Assembly (NCBI RefSeq): GCF_026571515.1 | Contig: NW_026852001.1 | Location: 62,001 to 126,000 of the forward strand | DNA: 64,000 bases | DNA from: Ruditapes philippinarum | Taxonomy: Eukaryota | Reading direction: 5' to 3' | In this document: piece after piece, positions 3,943 to 55,484 of the stretch | Layout of the letters: every line of letters starts with the position of its first letter | How positions within the stretch are numbered: position 1 is the stretch's first letter | Translations under genes and position numbers: made by a program | The notes under the pieces: generated by a model | Told to the model about the DNA's origin: nothing | Databases searched by the model: none | What the model saw: the letters and a program-made list of their open reading frames with translations, nothing else

Positions 3943-4465
3943 TTTCGTTTTAACCGAAATTGTCGTATTTTACTTCCTGGTTTTGATCGACCACGTATTA
4001 CGTTGTCATGCTCATTCAGCCGTATAGCATAAAGGCATGTAAAATGTATAGTGTTTAAATCGGTGCATTTTCGAGAAGGGAAAAAAGGAAAATAAAATCC
4101 AAACAGATAGTCCACATTAACGTTTGATGCATCAAAGTCATATACATGTACATGTCGGTCGGTCTTTAATGAAACAACAATTCAAATATACGACAAAGAT
4201 GTTTTTCACTTCTACTGAAAATATAACACAACGACTCTCGTTAGAATGAATGTTCATTCGAAATTTCATTATTCAAGATTGTATGTTTATAGCTTGTATA
4301 GATGATAGTGTAAAAGTGATCTCTATAACAATTCTATTTTTAGTTTATACTTACTAAGGGGTAATAAAAAGTTACAGTCAAACGAAATAAATAATAAACC
4401 ACTTTAATTTAGAGTGAAATATATGTCTAAATTAAGCGATTTATTTAGTTAAGATTTTTTAAAGA

Positions 4466-17163
<12,698 letters not shown>

Positions 17164-21800: not shown

Positions 21801-22828
21801 TGCTTAATTGCTTGATTGGGGGCGTGGACTGTAGCTTGCACTTTTCAGTACCGTCCATGAACTTCGAGCCTGTAACGTTTTGGACTTTCTCTAGGGTTTC
21901 GTTTTTCTTTATTTTATTCTGGTAACATTTTTAATTGTTGACGCAACTAAAACCTCAAAGACTAAGGTTTTAAGATTTATCATCTCATATGTAACAAAAA
22001 TATTTTTTTCTTTACCAATGTCCGAATTACGTAATATTCAAATGTTAGTCGTCAATGTAGACTTTGCATTATTTGTTCAGATTCACCCGATGCTGGCCAT
22101 GTCCCTGAAAGTGTACAAAGATGAACGAAAAAGAATGTTTAGAAATACAGTTCCAAGTACTAAAACGGTTTGTTTATATTCTCCTTATGTAACTTTCTTA
22201 AAAAAAAAAACAGAAACATTTTCTTTGTCTATATTATTTGATGGTCAAATTCAATATAGTACAATTACATACAATTAAAACGATATCATTTTCAACATAC
22301 CGTTCTGCTAAATAATTAAGAATATAAGATATGAATGGAGAATATATCTTTCTGTTTTAGATAATTCAAGCAATTGCTCCTTCGAAAGAAAGAATATTGG
22401 GAAAATTGAATATATATGTGGAAGCAGCTACAATAATTTGCTGGTTAATGTGTATTCAGGACCCTCCAATGGTTCTTTATACAACCAAGAAAGGAAAAAA
22501 GTTCGACGGAAAGTTTTTCAGTGCATACACTGAACGCGGTAAACGCGTAGCGTTCCCTGTTTGGCCTGCGTTGCTCCTTTGCAATGATGGACCAGTCGTT
22601 CAGAAAGGTATAGCACAAGGAAAAAATAAGAAGAAAAGGAATTTGGCGAGCATAAGTCCTTCTGCAACGAACAATAACGAAAAGGCACATACATTGGAGC
22701 TAGAAAACAATACTTTGACAACTTTAAATACTGATTATCAGGAGTCAGGCACAGATACTCTCATAAGAGTTTTATCTAAAGATATTCAGGAATTAGACAT
22801 AAATACACTCACAAGAGTTGTACCTTAG
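18820..22828 (+). CDS. Mieap/SPATA18-like paralogue 2, N-myristoylation-type N-terminus; about 419 aa
   Basis: Exons: 18820-18954 (MGNSSSSKRRKCSPG...), 19054-19112, 19409-19519, 19737-19847, 20097-20298, 20996-21082, 22081-22167, 22361-22828; 1260 nt in frame. Coiled coil, then RLSKLASDRLTDNNPNITDLSDDNRAIKVGEKFIELYNNEWSDAFE, then C-terminal ICWLMCIQDPPM...FD...VWPALLL...GPVVQKGIA, which I recognise as the MIEAP C-terminal domain pattern. A probable non-coding first exon ends near 18586 (aag|gtaagt). Confidence 0.85.
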
Positions 22829-27700: not shown

Positions 27701-28382
27701 GTTAATTCTCGGCCAACAGTATGTTTCTTTAAACGTTTTCGGAACTGGTTTGTCCAGGAAGTGGACTCATTTAATGATAATTAAATGCTTCAAAAACGTG
27801 CTGCATTAACTTTAAATTTTATTTAATATGTCATGAAACTGATCAACTTTTAACGATATTTATTTTCAGACTTTGGAAATATTTGTACCTAAAGAGGAGG
27901 AAACAGTCAAATTGCGAAATTATGTTCGAATCACAACAGAAACATGCTGGTTAATGTGTATACACGAACCACCTTTAACATTTAAATATTGTGAAGACAA
28001 TAATAAATTCGATGAGAACTATTTTAGCCCATACACAAGAACAGGTGACACTGTAGAGTTCCTTGTTTGGCCCGCTTTACTTCTCCACGATGGTGGACCG
28101 CTTTTGAACAAAGGTGTAGCACAAGCAAATGACTCAAAACAAAAAGAACAGAAAGTACAGACAAAACATACAAATGATAATGATAATACTGACTACATTG
28201 TTAATGATTCTAATTCCTCCAACGAAACTGAATTGTCTAGAAGAGAAGAAGCTGATGTAACGAGAATTAACGAAGATTTTGTGTCAAAAATAGACACAAT
28301 TAAACCAGTACCAAAGGCAAGACGAACAAAGGAACATTCTTCTAAAACACACAATGAAAATACAAGAGAAGAATCTTCTTGA
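24774..28382 (+). CDS. Mieap/SPATA18-like paralogue 3, myristoylation/palmitoylation-type N-terminus; about 438 aa
   Basis: Exons: 24774-24971 (aaaATGG; MGVVASCKPS...), 25128-25186, 25473-25562, 26033-26113, 26383-26584, 26942-27028, 27435-27521, 27870-28382; 1317 nt in frame. Exon sizes 59, 202, 87 and 87 nt and the intron phases match paralogue 2. C-terminal TCWLMCIHEPPL...FD...YT..G..V...VWPALLLHDGGPLLNKGVAQ. Confidence 0.87.
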
Positions 28383-31384: not shown

Positions 31385-34300
31385 ATGGAACTGAACAAGT
31401 TAGCCGTTGATCAGCTGGATTTAAAAGACAAAAGAGTTCTTATCAGGTATGCGTGTTGTTAAATACCATTGACAAAGCGCGATTATGCAGTAATTATTGT
31501 GTTGACCTTCGTTATTTGGCGACCTTCACCTTTAATGCACAGGCTAAGTAACCCCTAAGTAAGCCTTGAACCTCCATGAAATATAGGGGATAAGAAGCAC
31601 AGTACATAAGTTAACCTTACCATTATCATTTGCTGAATTGCAGAAAAAAACTCTGAATCCTTCACCCTCTATTTTGACACCTTGATTTTAATAAAAAGAA
31701 AAGATATCCAATAAACAGACTAATTCACTAATCACTTAAACAATTAAACATAAAGTTTAAACAGGTCTAGAAAAGTCCTAGATTTACACGTTAGCTATAA
31801 AAAATGCACACTATCTATAAAATTATAGAAAATACCATCTATAAAAATATGGATGTGTTCACACAAAATCATGTTTTTCTCGTGTGAATTATGCGTTCTA
31901 AGAAATTTGTGTACATTTTCATATATAAAACTTGTCAATCCACTTTGAGTAAGCAACATAGCAAGTTTGGTGGTCTTCAAATGCTGCCTTCGAAAATTCA
32001 GGCATTTGATACATTCTTAAGTTCAGGGTAGATGTATTTCACACGAGATAAACATGATTTTGTTAGAACACATCTGTTGTTATATAGATGGTATTATCTA
32101 TAATTTTACAGATAGTGTGTGTTTTTATAGGTAGTGTGTAAATATAGGACTTTTCTAGACCTGATTAAATCCAAGAATTTTGATGAATAGACACTTGAAC
32201 AAAATATGTTGAAGACGTTTGTTCTTGTAAAATCTTTTTATTCTCCCATATAATGTTCACCTTTAAATTGGAGATGCATTTGCAGATGTTTCAGTGTTTT
32301 TTTTTTTTATATAACTACTACCCTAAAACGGTACCATTCCCAATAGAAAATAGACATTAAAATTCCCAATTTCCAATGGAAAATTCCCAAAATGACTGTT
32401 CAAAATGCCCACAAGGCAAAGTGATTTTTCTAAAATCATTTAAATCCAACATATTCATATAAATCACCACTCAATAGTTCTATCTAGACAGTAGAAGCTG
32501 TTAGCTATCTTTATTCATGATGTCTAATCTCATTTGTAGCTGAAAAAATGAATTATAAAAAATCCCAATTTTAGTCAAAATAACGCATTTTTTCCCAATC
32601 AGTCTGGTACCGGCACCATTCCCAAAGTAGAGAAAAAAAACGCTGTGTTTTTGTTTACTTCTATAGCAGGGGCCGTTATAGGGCTGCTTCCCCAAGAAAA
32701 ATTCTTTAAAATCATGCAGTTTTCAACAAAATTGAATTTACATCAAGTTTTTTCCTCCCCCTTTTGCAAATATGCCGTGTAATTTATACCCAAAAATCAG
32801 GGCAGGGATCAGCGTCCCCGTCTGCGTTGGTTAAAGTTTTTTGTAAAGTCAAATATCTCAATTATTACTTGAGATACTCAATTGAAACTTACAATACTTA
32901 TTTATAGTAATAAGGTACATCAGATTGACAAGTTGGATAACTCTGCCTACAATATTGACAGAATTATGCCCCTTTTTAACTTAGAAATTTTGGTTAAAGT
33001 TTTTTCTAAAGTCAAATATCTCAATTTTTGCTTGAGATATTCAGTTGAAACTTACAATACTTATTTATAGTAACAAGGTACATCAGATTGACAAGTTGGA
33101 TAACTCTGTCTACAATATTGACAGAATTATGCCCCCTTGGAACTTAGAAATTTTGGTTAAAGTTTTTTTATAAAGTCATATATCTCAATTATTGCTTGAG
33201 ATATTCAGTTGAAATTTAAAATACTTTTTTATAGTAACAAGGTACATCAGTTTGCAAAATTGCATAACTCTGCCTGCAATATTTGCAGAATTACATGTAT
33301 TTGCCCCTTTGAAACTTAGAAATTTTGGTTAAAGGTTAAAGGTCTTCAAAGATATTCACTTGAAACTTTACACATGCACTTAGGATCATAAGTGGAGGGT
33401 CATAATTGTATGTCACTGACCAAGTTCCATAACTCTATCTTGCATTAAGGCTGATTCATATCCCCTTTTCTACTTAGTCTCTTGGTTAATGTTTACATGC
33501 AAGTTTTACATATCTCAATAACTATTAAAGATATTTATTTAAAACTTCACATATGCATTTAGGGTCATAATTGTAGGTCACTGACAAAGATCCATAATTC
33601 TATCTTGCATTTAGGCTGATTTTTCTCCCCTTTTTCAACTTAGAAATTCATGGTAAAGTTTTGCTTGTAAGCTGTTATCTCAATAACTACTGAAGGGTTT
33701 GTGCCTTTTTTGGGACAATTTTATGCGTTCATAATAATAAAGCAGTGATTTACTTGATAAAACATCTTAATAACAAGCCTTTGTACCTTTTCTGTCAAAT
33801 TTATGTATTCATAGATAATTAGTATTGTTATACTCAATAAAACACCCTTGTGACATTACCTTCCGAATAGTCAAGCCAATACTGTATAATTAGACTCTGT
33901 CTAAGGCCTATAGCATGAATTTATAAAAAAAATTAGCCCTTTTGTGAACTTAAAAAATTTAACATTATCAAGGCTCTTTTACTATCAAGCACTTAGAATA
34001 GTCGAGCGTGCTGTCCTACCGACAGCTCTTGTATATACATGTAGTAACCATGCCTTTGTTGTAGGTCAAAGGTCATGGTTCCTCTACTGTGTAATCAGCT
34101 TAGAAGGCATTTTTCAGTTTCCATTAACAGTTTCTTTATGATTTATCTCAACATTTTGAAAAATTAATTTGTGAGACTGTCCTACTTAAGTCTCAAGATC
34201 TGATTAAGAATCCACTGGTAACTTGTAATATTTCATTTACCTGTAAAGTTATATTTATTTTCAAGTCGGTTAATTATTTGAAAAAAGAGTTTTTCTATCA

Positions 34301-37300: not shown

Positions 37301-40300
37301 AAAGTTCCGAGCATCTTTGTCAAAATTAGGAGATGTTTATGTCAATGATGCATTCGGCACTGCTCACAGAGCTCATAGGTAATCAATGTTTATACTTGTA
37401 TATTACATATAATAATTGTATTTTTAGCTCGACTATTCGATAAGAATAAGTAGAGCTATTGCAGTCACCTGAGTGTCTGCGTCGGCGTAACCACTTATGT
37501 TAAAGTTTTTGTAATAGTTCAAATATTTTCAAAGTCCATTGACATATGGCTTTAATACTTTGCACACTTGTTCACCATCATGACCCCAACTTGTAGACAG
37601 GAGGAGGTAACTCTATCAATCATTTTGACAGAATTATGCCCCTTTTTCGACTTAGAATTTACGTTAAAGTTTTTGTAATACCTCAAATATTTTCAAAGTT
37701 CATTGACATATGGCTTTGAAACTTTGCACACTTGTTCACCATCATTACCCCAACCTGTAAACAGGAGGCGGTAACTGTATCAAGCATTTTTTTTTACTAT
37801 CAAGCACTTAGAATAGTCGAGCATTGCTGTCCTACCGACAGTTCTTGTTAAAAATTTTTAGTGTAACATGAGGTTTAGTTAATACTAATTTATATTAGTT
37901 TGAATGTGTTGGAAGCTATAAGTTTATTGAAACACTCTCGAATTTGTTCCTAGAACCAACCAGTTCTAAGCTATGAGTTAAAGATTCTTGCTCACCAAAG
38001 CAACGGCTTTAAACCCACAAGGTTTATACCCACAGGATTTATTGATACTGTGAATTATTCACAATATTTTGGAAAAAAATGAAAATTTACATGTTAGGCA
38101 CTGCTCCCAATGTTAGTCCTGTTTAAAGAGAGAGAGAAAATACTGTGATGTTTGGAATGCTAGCCAGCAATAATGATTTGCTTATATAAGCAGAATGATG
38201 TCAGACCTGGCAGCTTATTTTTGGCACTTTTATAACAAAAATGCCTCACTTTAACAATTGACAGTTCTGAACAAGTTTATTTTTTTGTAAAACTCAAGCA
38301 TTGTAAGAATTGAATCTGAAGTGACAAAACATAATGTTTGAATCTTGCAAAGAATAGAAAAAGGTAATGAAACTAGGTTTCCTGTTTCAATAATTTGTTT
38401 CAGTGAACATTAGCATAAGTTAAACAACTTGAAGATTTTTAAAGTCTGTTCTTTACGTATACCAGCACGTGTCAAAAGTATTTAGACAAGCCCAACATTT
38501 TGTATTTTGATATTTTTTCAGTTCAATGGTCGGATGCCAGCTACCCCAGCGGGCTTCAGGATATCTATTGAAGAAAGAATTAACATATTTCTCAAAAGCT
38601 TTAGACAACCCAAATAAACCATTCCTTGCCATACTTGGAGGGTAAGAACTGTTTGTGTGACAAGTTTGCCTTTTATTACATTGCTTTCATGTTGAATAAT
38701 TTTACGAGTGGTGTCATGTTTATCCACTTAAGTGGGTTTAGTCGGTTTTTAGCCAAAATTTGTTTGAAAATTAAATAAATGCTAACCGAGGTTAGTATTT
38801 GACAAACATCTGAAAAAATTTGAGATTGATATTAGTCAAAATATTATAACTCATGTATGTTCATTAATCACTTTAGAACTGTATCAACAATTTGCTTTCC
38901 ATAATTATTTCGTTAGAATATCCAAGTGATTTATTTATAACGTTTTCATTAATATTTGAATTATGTATGGAAATTATGCCAATTTTAGACCATTCCACTA
39001 TATAATTGATTGCATCAATATTTAAAAACTTATCATTATTCCTTCATCTAAATGGAAAATGTGTCCATTGTAGAGCAACCCACTTTAAACAATGACAAAC
39101 CAGTGACCACCTTTATTGTAACGTGATATTTTATGTTTACAGAGCTAAGGTGGCTGATAAGATACAGTTAATTGAGAACTTGCTAGATAAAGTTACAGAC
39201 ATGATTATTGGTGGAGGAATGGCATTCACTTTCCTTAAAGTCTTGAATGGCATGAAGGTAAGAAATTGTTCCAGGCAGCACACTAATGTTCCATTGGTAC
39301 CAGGCAGCAAACTAATATAAGAATGGTTCCAGGCATCAAATTTATGTAAAAATGTTACGGGATGGCAAAATAATATAAGAATGGTACCAAACATCACACA
39401 AACCATAAGGGTATATTCAGGCACCAAGCTTACCTAATTGTTGTACCAAGCTCTAATGTTCAAATGGTGCCAGGCATTAAACTTATGTAAGAATGGTACC
39501 AGGCACCACACAAATGAAATAATGGTGCTAACATGACTACTTCTCACTTGTTTGATTTTCTAGAAAAAGTAAATTCATGACTTCTTTATAGAGTTAAAAG
39601 ATTTGCATATATGAAATACATCTACATTAAACACAATGAAGATCTGTTATTTTAATTTCAGATCGGGAATTCTTTATATGACGAGGAGGGGGCTAAAATT
39701 GTAAATAAACTTATGGAAAAAGCCGAGAAAAAAGGTGTCAAGATTTATCTTCCAGTGGATGTAGTGACTGGAGATAAGTTTGCTGAAGACGCAACTGTCG
39801 GCAGTGCTACTGTGGCGTCTGGTATTCCTGATAATTCAATGGTAAGTTATTTGTATCTAGGAATACTTTATGAATGTGGTTCTGTAATTGTTAAATCATA
39901 ATGTATACTGTATTATACAGGTTACATGGGACGGCAGTGGCTTAGTGATTATGCCCCCATTTCGAAGAAAAGGGGGTATATTGCTTTGCACTTGTCGGTC
40001 CGTCGGTCCGTCGGTCCTTAGACCAAATGGTTTCCGAGTGATAACTAAAGAACCCTTAGGCCTAGGAACTTCAAACTTGGTATGGTGATTGGTCATGACC
40101 AGTAGATGACCCCTATTGATTTTGGGGTCAAGGGGTCAAAGGTCAAGGTCACATTGACCTTGTAAGCAAAAACGGTTTCCGATCAATAACTAAAGAACCT
40201 TAAGGCCTAGGAACTTCAAACTTGGTATGGTTATTGGTCATGACCAGTAGATGACCCCTATTGATTTTGGGGTCAAGGGGTCAAAGGTCAAGGTCACATT

Positions 40301-43300
40301 GACCTTGTAAGCAAAAACGGTTTCTGATCAATAACTTAAGAACCTTAAGGCCTAGGAACTTCAAACTTGATATGGTGATTGGTCATGATCAGTAGATGAT
40401 CCCTATTGATTTTGGGGTCAATGGGTCAAAGGTCAAGGTCACATTGACCTTGTAAGCAAAAATGGTTTCCGAACAATAACTAAAGAACTTTAAGGCCTAG
40501 GAACTTCAAACTTGGTATGGTGATTGGTCATGATCAGTAGATGACCCCTATTGAATTTGGAGTCAAGGGGTCAAAGGTCAAGGTCACATTGACCTTGTAA
40601 GCAATAACGGTTTCCGATCAATAACTAAAGAACTTTAAGGCCTAGGAACTTCAAACTTGGTATGGTGATTGGTCATGATCAGTAGATGACCCCTATTGAT
40701 TTTAGGGTCAAGGGGTCAAAGGTCAAGGTCACATTGACCTCTTGGTAAAAAACGGTTTCTGATCAATAACAAAAGAACCCTTAGGCCTAGGAACTTCAAA
40801 CTTGGTATGGTGATTGGTCATGACCAGCAGATGACCCCTATTGATTTTGGGGTTAAGGGGTCAAAGATCAAGGTCACATTGACCTTGTAGGTAAAAACGA
40901 TTTCCGATCAATAACAACAGAACCCGTAGGCCTAGGAACTTCAAACTTGGTATGGTGATTGGTCATGACCAGCAGATGACCCCTATTGATTTTGGGGTTA
41001 AGGGGTAAAAGGTCAAGGTCACATTGACTTTGTAGGTAAAAACAGTTTCCGATCAATAATGAAAGAACCCTTAGGCCTAGGGACTTCAAACTTGATATGG
41101 TGATTGGTCATGATCAGTAGATGACCCCTATTGATTTTGGGGTCAAGGGGTCAAAGGTCAAGGTCACATTGACCTCTTAGGTAAAAACGGTTTCCGATCA
41201 ATAACTAAAGAACCCTTAGGCCTAGGAACTTCAAACTTGGTATGATGATTGGTCATGACCAGTAGATGACCCCTATTGATATTGGGGTTAAGGGGTCAAA
41301 GGGCAAGGTCACATTGACCTTGTAGGTAAAAATGCTTTCAAATCAATAACTTAAGAACACTTTGGCCTAGGAACTTCAAACATGGTATGGTGATTGGTCA
41401 TGACCAGCAGATGACCTATTGATTTTGGGGTCAAGGGGTCAAAGGTCAAGGTCACATTGACCTTGTATGTTAAAACGGTTTCCAATCAATTAACTAAAAA
41501 TGCTTAGGCCTAGGAACTTCAAACTTTGTATGATTGGTCGTGACCAGCAGATGACCCCTATTGAGTTTTGGGTCAAGGGGTCAAAGGTTAAGGTCATGAC
41601 CAGTAGATACTTGATAACCCTTATTAATTGTTTGATCACTGGGTCAGAAGTAATGCATAATAACCTTATCACATGACTAATTGGCTGCTGATAGGGGGCA
41701 TACATGTTTTACAAACATATCTTGTTAAAGTATGACTTTCAATCTCTTGCCTCTCACATCTATGGGTTAAAATCCCACCAGGACATTTTGATTTTTCCTG
41801 TGAGGAAGCTATCCTTCTGGATTATTGAAGACTTAACTGCTTTTGTCTGAAATTGTGCATGGAGGGGCAAATTGTTTATTCCTTTACCAGTAAAATCTTG
41901 AATGTTACCATATTCTGAATGACTTGTGCAGTATAAACTATTGCTTTTGAGACCTTTTGTTCTCACTGCACTGTAATCTCAAATTGAACAATTTTGTGGT
42001 AAATGTTTTAAGGTACTCTGAAGTTCAGGTTTTTAAATCTCATATCAGCACTTTCTTTTTTTTTATAAACCAACAAAAAAAATGATCGACTTAGGGTTTT
42101 CAGGAGTTTTTTTTGTTGACATTTACATATATTTTGTTTCTTCTGAATGACGGTATATTATTTTGTTGCTGTAAAAGGATATACTAAAATGGCTGAATTG
42201 GTTGCATCATGATCAAGTAAAGTTAAGTACATATTAAAAGACCTTTTTATCCTATAATTTACAGGGTCTTGACATTGGACCAGAATCTATCAAGTTATTT
42301 ACAGCTGCCGTAACAACAGCAAAGACAATAGTCTGGAATGGGTATGTGATTTAAGAATATAGTTTCATATTATTTAGTCAGGTTTATTTCATTTTGCTAA
42401 ACATAACTTAAAGACATAGGCATTATTTTTTATTAGAATACAAGATTATGCCTATATCCATTGTGCTAAAAACTTTTGATTTGGGGATGTCTATGACTTT
42501 AGCCATTATGCATTACTGCATTGAACCTTTTCTATAGTGATTAAAAATCCTGCAGTGGCCAAATTACATTATGAGCTAGTTTTCAGAATGTTTTTCCCCC
42601 ATGCATTCTTTTTGCGAGCAAGTAGCTATATTTTAAATTGGGGAACCTTTGGAGAAATAATCAAGACAATTGATTAATTAGAATAATTAAGCTGTTTATG
42701 ACACTATTGATAAATAGAACTTTTCTAGGCTGTGGTCTAGAGATGCATGCTCCGGCATTGATTGAGAAATTTTGTATTCTTGTTCACTGCTTATCTCTCT
42801 GGATGCTGTTGGCCATAATATCATTGATCTTTCTGACTATGACACAATATACCTCAAGACAAGAGCTTTATTTATATATTTGACCTTGACCTCTTAATGG
42901 CCTTGACCTTAAAGGTTAAATTTTCAAAATTCAGGTACTTTTCACATATTTAAACAGATATAGAAATGAAGCATTTTGCTTTACTAAATAAACATCAATA
43001 ATTCTTGTGTGTGTATGTTATGAAATTGATGGAATTTGTTGCTCGCTATTTCAGACCTCCAGGTGTGTTTGAGTTCCCAAACTTTGCTAAAGGAACCATT
43101 GCTTTGATGGATGCAGTTGTACAAGCTACACAAAATGGTGCAACTACCATCATTGGTAAGGGATCACAATGTTTACCAGTTCATATTATCACAATTTAGA
43201 GATTCTTGCAGTTTTATATCTCTGTAGTGCATGTCAATGTTTTTACCAACAACTTTCTAACTCGATAGACTGATTAAGAATATTTTGAGTTTTTCCCAGT

Positions 43301-44874
43301 TGATCCAAGGGTACAAACAAACTTTTAAAGTTTAGCACAACTGGTTGACTAATCTATTGTGAGTGCACCATGAAGTTACAAAGGTAACATGGTGTTTGTA
43401 CTGGGGGATTAACTTGGATAAATCGACATTTGCCAAGTTCCGGATAACATCTATTGAAATGGATGATTGATATGAATTCTGCATGTATGAGCTTTCTGAA
43501 CTAAACATTTTGCAAATTTATTTTTGTTAACATTATATCTTTGCTATCATCATCATGTTCACATCTTCTAGTTTAAAATGTATAGAAACCTTGAGGGATG
43601 TTTCCAAGGTAACAGAGTTTAAGTTGATGGCTTTCAGTCATTCACTATCCAAATTTTATGCATTAGGATACTGATTGTGATGAGGGATGCTGTCCATTAA
43701 GAAATCTATTAAAATTTTGTAATCTGTACTAAACTAAGATTTCTACCCATCAAAAAGAATATCTTGTGTCTTCCCCTATTAAAATATCATTATTTCGCCT
43801 GAAATATATTGTGTCTTCGTGTTGGTTCAGTGAGCATATTATCGTGTCTTCTCCTTCGACTTTTGAGGGGCAAAGACACAAAATGGCAGAAATCAGCCAC
43901 CATACATCTTTGCAGTTTGCCAAGCTCTGTCTCATGGAGGGTAAAGTTGAACTTCTTTGATCTTATGTTGGACTGTTCCAAATTCAAAGCTGGTCAGGTC
44001 CATTACCCAAATCGAGTAGGGTATGTGATAAGTAAGAGAAAAATAAATTGAAGAAAGACTTTATGAAATCCCTAAATCTTGCAATGGACTTTTCCAACTT
44101 CAAAGGAGGACAGGTCCATTATTCAAATTTAGGACAGTTCGGGTAAAACAACAGGGAGTAAAGCAATTTGTACACTATGTTATAATTTAATTACAGGTGG
44201 TGGGGATACAGCGACATGTTGTGCTAAATATAACACAGAAGATAAAGTCAGCCATGTCAGTACAGGAGGCGGAGCTAGTCTTGAACTCTTGGAAGGTTTG
44301 CTATCAATATCATTTTTACATTGTAACTAGGGGCGTCCATTGCCGAGTGGTTCACGGAGGGGCACCGGAGGTCTTCTTCCACCTGTAAAGCTGGAAAGTT
44401 TCCATATGACCTCTACTGTGTTGATGCAATGTAAAACCCAATAAAAAATATATTTTAACTTTTCTATGCAGCTGATGTGAATTTATTAAATAAATAAGGT
44501 CTATTCTTCATATTGAGAGATGTAAGTCATTCATAAGTACTGTGCAATTTCCGCAGAGTGACCCTCTTTGTCAAGGAAGGTTTTCAGTGAGCTTTTGGAA
44601 GATTGATGGGTCCAATCAGACCGCTTGTAACTGTACCCATTGGCACCAAAGGTATTCATCCACCAGTAAAGTTATAAAATTAACAGTTCAAAATGTTGCT
44701 ATATTTAAGAAAAAAGAAATTCTCTAATGACTGATTTTGTGTGATGAAAAATAAACATGTAAACATAACAAGACTAAATGGATATAAATGAAAATATATT
44801 AAATTAAAAATATGTTCTTTTTATTTTTAGGTAAAATTTTACCAGGTGTTGCAGCACTGTCCCCAGCCTCGTAA
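31385..44874 (+). CDS. PGK: Phosphoglycerate kinase, 416 aa, 12 exons
   Basis: Exons: 31385-31446, 34455-34505, 35320-35472, 36380-36524, 37275-37378, 38522-38641, 39143-39257, 39662-39841, 42265-42341, 43055-43155, 44197-44295, 44831-44874; 1251 nt in frame. Motifs [100 protein letters not shown] at ~45462 and ~45722. Confidence 0.98.
31762..32163. mobile_element. MITE in PGK intron 1
   Basis: Terminal inverted repeat caggtctagaaaagtccta(g)atttacac / gtgtaaat(a)taggacttttctagacctg. Confidence 0.85.
32292..32645. mobile_element. Putative MITE with repeated ttccca motifs
   Basis: Ends cagtgttttttt / aaaaaaaacgctg; several internal attccc(a)a motifs. Confidence 0.5.
32810..34032 (+). mobile_element. 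5'-truncated Helentron/HINE-like element with internal tandem repeats (~145 bp)
   Basis: Three well-conserved units (ggttaaagtttt...aatatctcaatt...cagaattatgccc...acttagaaattt) plus decayed ones. The 3' end actatcaagcacttagaatagtcgagc...gctgtcctaccgacagc (hairpin) is shared with the element at 37420. Confidence 0.8.
34523..34676. mobile_element. Short putative MITE
   Basis: Ends cagagatcgaaaa / ttttcgatgcctg; internal cacttgtc / gacaagtg inverted pair. Confidence 0.5.
35822..36082 (+). mobile_element. tRNA-derived SINE-like copy
   Basis: B-box-like ggtttgaatccc; body gtgcctgaaataa...ctgaggtcttcc...aagctggaa is shared with copies at 44329, 52125 and 60752. Confidence 0.6.
37420..37849 (+). 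mobile_element. Complete short Helentron/HINE-like element
   Basis: Subterminal inverted repeat gctcgactattc / gaatagtcgagc, 3' hairpin ctgtcctaccgacag, T-rich insertion site, about 1.7 internal tandem units (ttaaagtttttgtaata...caaatattttcaaagt). Confidence 0.82.
39262..39525. repeat. Degenerate ~30-bp minisatellite
   Basis: Recurring aatggt(a/t)ccaggca motif. Confidence 0.55.
39949..41726 (+). mobile_element. Helentron/HINE-like element with 11 x 145-bp tandem array, in PGK intron 8
   Basis: Subterminal inverted repeat tatgccccc / gggggcata; (gtcg/gtcc) microsatellite at ~39994; cctagg recurs at 40061, 40206, 40351, 40496, 40641, 40786, 40931, 41076, 41221, 41365 and ~41508; 3' hairpin atgttttacaaacat. 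Confidence 0.9.
44329..44445 (+). mobile_element. Internally deleted SINE-like copy
   Basis: A-box-like head ttgccgagtggtt joined directly to the tail gaggtcttc...aaagctggaaagt...atatgacc...aaacccaataaaaa. Confidence 0.6.
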
Positions 44875-54334: not shown

Positions 54335-55484
54335 ATTATGTCTCCCCCACCTCGGGGGGAGACATATTGTTTTTGCCCTGTCCGTCCGTCAGTCCGTCCG
54401 TCCGTCAGTCCGTCCGTCCATTCTTCGTTTCCGGACGATAACTAGAGTTCCTTTTGACCTACAGCTCTCAAACTTCATAGGATGAATGGTCTTATTGAGC
54501 AGATGATCCCTATTGTTTTTGGGGTCAGTAGTTCAAAGGTCAAGGTCACAGTGACCGTTTGTCAATTTCTCGTTTCCGGATGATAACTAGAGTTCCTTTT
54601 GACCTACAGCCCTCAAACTTCATAGGATGATTGGTCTTATAGAGCTGATGACCCCTATTGTTTTTGGGGTCAGTAGGTCAAAGGTCAAGGTCACACTGAC
54701 CGTTGGTCAATTTCTCGTTTCCGGATGATAACTAGAGTTCCTTTAGACCTTCAGACCTCAAACTTCATAGGATGATTGGTCTTATTGAGCAGATGATCCC
54801 TATTGTTTTTGGGGTCAGTAGTTCAAAGGTCAAGGTCACAGTGACCCTTGGTCAATTTCTCGTTTCCGGATGATAACTAGAGTTCCTTTTGACCTACAGC
54901 CCTCAAACTTCATAGGATGATTGGTCTTATAGAGCAGATGATCCCTATTGTTTTTGGGGTCAGTAGGTCAAAGGTCAAGGTCACAGTGACCGTTGGTCAA
55001 TTTCTCATTTCCGGATGATAACTAGAGTTCCTTTTGACCTACAACCTTCAAACTTCATAGGATGATTGGTCTTATTAATCAAATGATCCCTATTGTTTTA
55101 ATGGTCAGTAGGTCAAAGGTCAAGGTCACAGCGACCGTTGGTTAATTTCTCCTTTCCGGATGATAACTAGAGTTCCTTTAGACCTACAACCCTCAAACTT
55201 CATAGGATGATTGGTCTTATTGAGCAGATGATCCCTCTTGTTTATGGGGTCAGTAGGTCAAAGGTTAAGGTCACAGTGACCATTGGTCATTTTCTCATTT
55301 CCGGATGATAACTAGAGTTCTTATCAGTGAGGACATTTAACTATTATTGATATATCAGTGATATATCAGTTGTCTGGTTTTATATACTCTGTTCTTTTAT
55401 CTCCATTTCCATTCCTGTTTCCATTCACAGTTATTCTCAGCAGTGGGGGAGACATGCGCTTTTTTACAAAAGCATCCTCTAGTT
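54335..55484 (+). mobile_element. Helentron/HINE-like element with ~6 x 145-bp tandem array
   Basis: Subterminal inverted repeat atgtctccccc / gggggagacat (the 5' copy also forms a local hairpin); (gtcc)n microsatellite 54380-54419; actagag recurs at 54441, 54586, 54731, 54876, 55021, 55166 and 55311; 3' hairpin gcttttttacaaaagc. Confidence 0.9.

Follow-up and report, generated by a model that had tools for sequence, protein, structure and literature searches.

Non-autonomous Helentrons (HINEs) have a characteristic layout that has been described for the oyster (PMC7492417) and for Drosophila (PMC4067079), and the subterminal inverted repeats (subTIRs) of the oyster elements are usually 11-12 bp long (PMC7492417). 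That HINEs with satellite-like cores reside in bivalve introns is already published, as is the occurrence of clusters of factor-binding sites on Helitrons (PMC6927752). Our literature search found no prior report of nuclear receptor motifs in HINE core repeats (Repbase/Dfam and subscription journals being outside its scope). A snail estrogen receptor (ER) is described as binding the consensus estrogen response element (ERE) without ligand and the snail ERR as not binding it, in a report stating that the position and extent of EREs in mollusc genomes are not known (PMC3778743). Here we analysed a window of 64,000 nucleotides of the clam Ruditapes philippinarum (assembly GCF_026571515.1, contig NW_026852001.1, positions 62,001 to 126,000), in which an intron of a PGK gene carries a 145-bp tandem array of nuclear receptor half-sites. 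We find that it constitutes the central repeat of a young HINE, which entered an older repeat resembling a short interspersed element (SINE) at a TT. We lean slightly towards the explanation that this is an incidental insertion of an element whose AAGGTCAAGGTCAC block, kept across lineages, would benefit the element by attracting a nuclear receptor of the host. The PGK insertion is ordinary; what stands out is the motif census and one unexplained conserved module.

The array as the core of a Helentron

The initial annotation of the window had described a satellite array made up of nuclear receptor response elements, and its account of the repeat was accurate. Tandem Repeats Finder delimits an array of period 145 with 91% matches, and the nine perfect EREs (AGGTCAnnnTGACCT) are all where the annotation had located them, compared with none in 100 dinucleotide shuffles of the window; the tenth, at 41016, is indeed a variant reading TGACTT. 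The inverted repeat IR0, the direct repeats DR2, DR1 and DR0, and the site TCAAGGTCA are likewise all part of the consensus, each occurring in 7-9 units (IR0, DR2 and DR1 seven times within the element, DR0 eight times, TCAAGGTCA and the ERE nine times). As regards a functional ERE, the consensus sequence is thus present in nine copies and the exon of a cognate receptor is encoded in the genome. All nine EREs descend from a single site by copying and do not count as separate events. The variant at 41016 is common to six elements of a 40-element sample and is therefore inherited, not specific to PGK.

The array belongs to an element with the anatomy of a HINE (Table 1): a 5' subTIR with a nearby complementary inverted repeat, a subTIR pair of 9 bp, a microsatellite and, after it, central tandem repeats whose orientation is fixed, a 3' subTIR and stem-loop with an identical tail in 39 of 40 copies, and no open frame of 90 amino acids or more in 39949-41726. 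Insertion is at TT, with no target-site duplication beyond the terminal Ts: the empty site has one TT and the filled site has TT at both ends. Only TT is common to the two ends in 35 of 40 elements, the window's included (overlap of 0-5 in the other five), and a miniature inverted-repeat element with a target-site duplication was rejected on that ground. The genome contains 1,130 exact copies of the element head (5' end), and the best 39 other matches are 97-99% identical across about 380 bases. For the sample we took 40 of the first 42 heads listed, passing over that of the window and another close to a contig end; of these 40 copies, 39 are complete, at 1,044-3,517 bp. The term satellite fits the array in the sense of a tandem repeat and not as a free satellite, since the array is bounded by transposon ends: 39 of the 40 copies, selected by their heads, hold 6-21 units within element ends (long arrays without a head were not looked for elsewhere).

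Genome-wide, we counted 21,847 perfect 15-bp EREs against 93 for a reversed control, 26,562 13-bp ERE cores against 1,117, and 78,977 occurrences of the AGGTCAAGGTCAC block against 38, with at least 15,249 EREs in the exact block context. These copy and motif counts bear out the earlier proposal of a mobile element spreading the motifs through the genome. Most perfect EREs of this genome lie within one transposon clade.

The family was almost certainly mobilised in trans by a partner encoding a Rep-helicase and an endonuclease. The genome has 94 PF14214 (RepHel) matches, and we examined 40 of these loci, 20 on both sides and 20 on the downstream side only. Among the 20 loci read on both sides, three (C102, C3781 and C6060) are full-length Helentrons with the clade's 145-bp array between the 5' end and the open reading frame; C102 is 11.9 kb long and has Rep, PIF1 and endonuclease domains, its reading frame being split by one stop. 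The block is found in the arrays of C102 and C3781 and in variant form in C6060, and the ERE in none of the three. Other full-length Helentrons have arrays of 162-167 bp without the block, which is therefore specific to the clade. The sole copy lacking a tail, L046 (280-1730, 4120-4185), was considered as an autonomous partner and rejected as 3'-truncated; the sequence to its left recurs 3.9 kb further downstream with no element in it, forming a paralogous empty site. Two other HINEs (L068, L078) are inserted immediately behind the T-rich 3' terminus of another HINE or of a full-length Helentron.

Conservation of the block and its possible binders

In the between-family comparison, 154 arrays fell into 37 clusters, of which we kept the 11 with the TTCCG..ATAACT box (at most one mismatch), a selection that is blind to the receptor motif. 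AAGGTCAAGGTCAC lies at one register with 13-14 of 14 matches in 7 of the 10 other families (11/14, 9/14 and 1/14 in the remaining three). In four of the families with 13-14 matches, identity outside the block is as low as 33-45%, and none of 20,000 column shuffles attained the observed conservation of the block. It is thus this DR0/ERR-type block, and not the ERE, IR0, DR1 or DR2 that the initial annotation had listed beside it, that is the most conserved part. The 3' arm of the ERE is at background identity across families (pairwise 0.45 versus 0.46), and a palindrome beyond the block, on its downstream side, is lacking in most families, has spacing 3 in a few and spacing 5 in one. We therefore reject the ERE, found in only 1 of 23 metagenome clusters (see below), as the conserved core; it is a family-specific extra in one sub-branch. 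The family with spacing 5 instead of 3 between the block and the inverted half-site is a divergent 146-bp one (L137, L182, L193). A second HINE family within the window, at 54336-55484 (Table 1), has perfect 13-bp subTIRs, and AGTTCA replaces an upstream half-site in alternate units.

A metagenome scan for two boxes 88-98 nt apart returned at least 123 loci from at least 29 assemblies, in 23 clusters, with a spacer of 91-93 nt in 101 of the 123 loci listed and in 15 of the 23 clusters. The AAAYTT box, which was not selected for, is present in 18 of 23 clusters (control window, 4 of 23), and an extra upstream GGTCA in 10-11 of 23 versus none of 23 in control windows. Outside the boxes, identity with the window family is 0.48-0.62, near the shuffled value of 0.47.

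Within the family, variants shared by many copies reflect source elements. They affect 1 of 15 positions of the block (circular-shift rank 3-5 of 145) and 0-1 of 12 positions of the ERE arms (Fisher p 0.003-0.01; circular-shift rank 1-7 of 145), versus 35-42 of 80 elsewhere, and the upstream half-sites and IR0 vary freely among them. Rare substitutions, defined as those seen in at most two elements and mostly dating from after insertion, were counted in 474 monomers of 40 elements. The ERE arms held 26 against 15.5 expected (confidence interval of the ratio 1.1-2.5) and all half-sites 69 against 56.8 (0.95-1.54), the half-site ratio being 1.29 at threshold 3 and 0.93 at threshold 5. Host selection on the half-sites after insertion is thus not seen at any of the three rarity thresholds, and in these rare substitutions the half-sites change no more slowly than the rest of the repeat, an outcome that the initial annotation had itself named as speaking against its proposal. 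With no depletion of rare substitutions in the half-sites, copies therefore decay freely after insertion.

Deep conservation of the block combined with free decay of the copies argues for selection on source elements. It is possible, with roughly an even chance for the three steps taken together, that an ERR-, NR5A- or DR0-binding host receptor binds the multimerised block, that this binding would keep the 5' end of the element accessible or transcribed in the cells through which copies are inherited, and that source elements with an intact block would thereby be favoured. The AAGGTCAAGGTCAC block equals the Esrrb and RAR DR0 motifs. At the exon level, the genome encodes an ER first zinc finger, whose best matches are AncSR1 and ER, and likewise DNA-binding exons of the ERR and NR5A types. 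In the mouse, TCAAGGTCA, the Esrrb motif, is also bound by Nr5a2, including on nucleosomes (bioRxiv 10.1101/2022.05.17.492379), and maternal receptor transcripts are described in oyster eggs (PMC5041327). The Esrrb/RAR-type block, the receptor exons and the maternal transcripts are thus what tips us towards recruitment of a host receptor, in a balance that remains close to even. The idea of GCNF/NR6A as the DR0 binder is weakened by the reported lack of NR6 in the oyster (PMC4070562); the clam genome was not searched for it. A set of related nuclear receptor genes (L156-L165), with single-exon DNA-binding domains in long open frames and three members on contig C10081, forms a lineage-specific expansion and may include binders.

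Several observations weigh against this explanation. The TTCCG..ATAACT and AAACTT boxes, which have no receptor likeness, are as conserved as the block, so that conservation alone names no binder, and the signal within the family is modest in terms of the circular-shift ranks. Many Helentron arrays of 156-167 bp in the same genome are without the block, the monomer families are not phylogenetically independent and the metagenome matches were selected on the block itself. The rare-variant test would miss selection confined to a minority of loci or acting on redundant copies, and no autonomous element with the ends of the window's HINE family was found in the 40 RepHel loci.

The block could instead be conserved for a reason unrelated to receptors, as a binding site for the Helentron's own protein or for some other factor of the host, as a signal in array turnover or as a means of nucleosome phasing, and to this we give a substantial minority of our belief. 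Extra half-sites would then arise by slippage, and the ERE by hairpin formation and correction in single-stranded intermediates. Slippage of a 6-7-bp unit can yield extra half-sites (seen in L217, L229 and L266), the ERE folds into a hairpin of 7 bp (-4.9 kcal/mol), and a palindrome whose spacing is 3 in some families and 5 in another suits a hairpin better than a single receptor. In a similar vein, conserved segments of core repeats have been read as rearrangement or chromatin-protein sites (PMC3879986). Less easily accommodated is the clustering of half-sites near the block in unrelated families and in the oyster CL6 arrays. The same can be said of L072 (f17) and L111 (f2), in which the first half-site of the block is lost and the 5' flank reads ACTAGGTCA, which we take to resemble a ROR/Rev-erb monomer site.

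The sheer number of perfect EREs, and their frequency in the block context, might also suggest that these roughly 22,000 sites form a collective sink buffering a ligand-independent mollusc ER, or that the arrays dock repressive receptors that silence the element. NR2C/NR2F receptors bind direct repeats of GGGTCA, and the genome has what we presume to be COUP-TF- and TR2/4-like DNA-binding domains. However, the ERE arms decay freely after insertion, the ERE is absent from the three full-length Helentrons and from 22 of the 23 metagenome clusters, and conservation of a site for its own silencing would be unexpected in an element; we thus regard both variants as very improbable.

If, as we favour, the block is a receptor site, conserved segments in the core repeats of Helentrons, so far unexplained, would gain a function, and the activity of a rolling-circle transposon would be tied to host nuclear receptors. 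A wider proposal, which we put forward only tentatively, is that an ERR/NR5A/DR0-type module has been retained by a widespread Helentron clade, at a constant position within repeats the size of a nucleosome, in distant molluscs and probably other animals, with host receptors acting as pioneer factors for the activity of the elements. In the clam genome one branch would have added a perfect ERE, seeding some 22,000 of them, and transposon arrays would then be where the ligand-independent mollusc ER chiefly binds.

The insertion in PGK

The gene was identified as PGK1 from a match of the exon flanking the array (E 2e-20, PDB comparison, one exon). ERR activates glycolytic genes in Drosophila and mammals, and the initial annotation had raised the possibility of a role at PGK as an enhancer or silencer, while allowing that the location could be incidental. 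On this view the host would have co-opted the window copy to enhance or silence PGK in response to ER or ERR. The motifs are perfect and multimerised, exons of suitable receptors are present in the genome, the ligand-independent binding of a consensus ERE by the snail ER would fit and Helitron-borne heat shock elements (HSEs) are described as rewiring Caenorhabditis genes (PMC6927752). The failure of the snail ERR to bind an ERE points the other way (PMC3778743), as do several features of the locus.

The assembly has a second match to the flanking exon (L345), which is a PGK copy free of the element: its intron contains no half-site and has a single TT at the element's position. The adjacent exon differs from that of the window by 7 synonymous and 0 amino-acid differences (the protein is 100% identical). 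L345 is probably an allele, since it carries 16 of 24 alternative letters checked from independent runs; a recent paralog is the alternative. One contig each from samples X5 and X10 fits the window to 39951 and continues with 136 and 333 letters, respectively, that do not fit the element, and these samples probably have insertion-free alleles. The PGK insertion is not fixed.

The window copy is also young, with 0.35% rare variants, and 2/5 of its own rare changes lie in half-sites. With the block once per 18 kb of genome and the 145-bp HINE family of the window once per 1.25 Mb, the presence of such a repeat in a 13.5-kb gene is unremarkable. A host enhancer exapted from the element would be fixed and protected from mutation; here the second copy is empty and rare substitutions are not depleted. 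Since the half-sites mutate no slower after insertion, a host role at PGK is unsupported, and the absence of the insertion from the second copy agrees with an incidental location. We conclude that the element very probably has no selected role at PGK and that its adoption as a local enhancer or silencer is highly unlikely; the 7 synonymous exon differences between filled and empty copies make the latter idea directly testable.

The empty-site sequence matches 38 other genomic places at 72-82% identity (40 scored, from 1,083 candidates), and we call this target repeat SINE-like from its A/B-box look, judged by eye. A fragment in a later PGK intron (44330-44420) resembles it, again by eye. Two more HINE-like elements, with 163- and 164-bp units and a common 3' subTIR, lie in PGK introns (about 32790-34030 and 37424-37850); neither has the receptor block, and they bring the insertions of this kind in PGK to three. 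A 29-bp minisatellite (39259-39526), which lies in the PGK intron before that of the element, differs in length between the two PGK copies. Elsewhere in the window, open frames on the minus strand (about 4400-15900) are presumably SRCR- and ZP-domain exons, and two paralogous plus-strand exons (22361-22828 and 27843-28382) are what we take to be MIEAP-like.

Table 1. Coordinates, in the window, of the element, its parts and its surroundings
Feature	Position	Strand	Basis or remark
PGK coding span, ATG to TAA	31385..44874	+	Read from sequence; one exon checked against PDB
Element-bearing PGK intron	39842..42264	+	Counterpart in second PGK copy is 396 bp
SINE-like dispersed repeat, older, split by insertion	39920..41834 (pieces ~39920-39948 and 41727-41834)	+	Empty-site matches elsewhere
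Non-autonomous Helentron (HINE) copy, 1,778 bp including both terminal TT	39949..41726	+	Ends as in 39/40 copies; empty site L345
5' subTIR TATGCCCCC	39950..39958	+	Sequence; complementary to 41694-41702
Internal inverted repeat	39972..39980	+	Pairs with 5' subTIR in a 5' hairpin, -8.2 kcal/mol (DNA parameters)
GTCG/GTCC microsatellite	39994..40017	+	Sequence; a HINE feature as described in PMC7492417
Central array, 145 bp x 10.9	40025..41596	+	Up to 6 AGGTCA-type half-sites per unit, including conserved AAGGTCAAGGTCAC block and family-specific ERE
3' subTIR GGGGGCATA	41694..41702	+	Sequence
3' stem-loop, 6-bp stem and 3-nt loop, then T-rich end	41704..41718	+	Sequence
Second, related 145-bp HINE family	54336..55484	+	AAGGTCAAGGTCAC block present; 13-bp ERE core GGTCAnnnTGACC with other spacer in 5 of 6 units

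Relation to described elements

The closest described counterpart is the oyster element Cg_HINE_6 with its CL6 array, which shares with the clam element a 5' subTIR and inverted repeat, a GTCY microsatellite, a short central array, and a 3' subTIR with palindrome; like it, Cg_HINE elements insert at TT without target-site duplication and are found in gene introns (PMC7492417). The CL6 monomer of 146-147 bp has a TGTCCG box and AAGGTCAAGGTCAC at the same register (110 versus 109, by eye), and among the CL6 rows listed the block follows the matching box by 93 nt, compared with 92 in the window family; these arrays were originally defined without regard to motifs (PMC7492417). The two differ in that no ERE occurs among the CL6 rows listed, that the Cg_HINE arrays have about 4 units against 6-21 in the clam, whose subTIR is only 9 bp, and that the parts of the oyster report drawn on here do not mention receptor motifs (PMC7492417); the sequence comparison covers the internal array. 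HINE/DINE-1 (PMC4067079) and pearl/DTC84 (PMC3879986) elements resemble ours in terminal architecture, T-rich target, variable repeat number and ordered monomer variants, and the conserved DTC84 palindrome TTGTCCGGACAA is similar to the TTCCG box of the clam monomer; DTC84 differs in its 156-bp core of at most 5 units, for which the portion of the source cited describes no receptor block (PMC3879986).

With respect to receptors, the nearest parallel is provided by the Nr5a2/Esrrb sites of mouse SINE B1/Alu, where TCAAGGTCA and AGGTCAAGGTCA are likewise carried by a high-copy repeat and the receptors bind nucleosomal DNA; in that case the carrier is a retroposon, has single sites and plays a demonstrated part in genome activation of the host, whereas the clam motif lies in the tandem array of a DNA transposon (bioRxiv 10.1101/2022.05.17.492379). 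The HSE-bearing Helitrons of Caenorhabditis are similar in being rolling-circle elements with dense clusters of motifs for one factor throughout the genome, insertions that are polymorphic and an origin proposed to be selfish; for these Helitrons, binding of HSF-1 and induction of genes have been demonstrated (PMC6927752), while the clam case is built from sequence. The clam elements differ from them further in the presumed class of factor, a nuclear receptor, and in a motif that is conserved beyond one genus.

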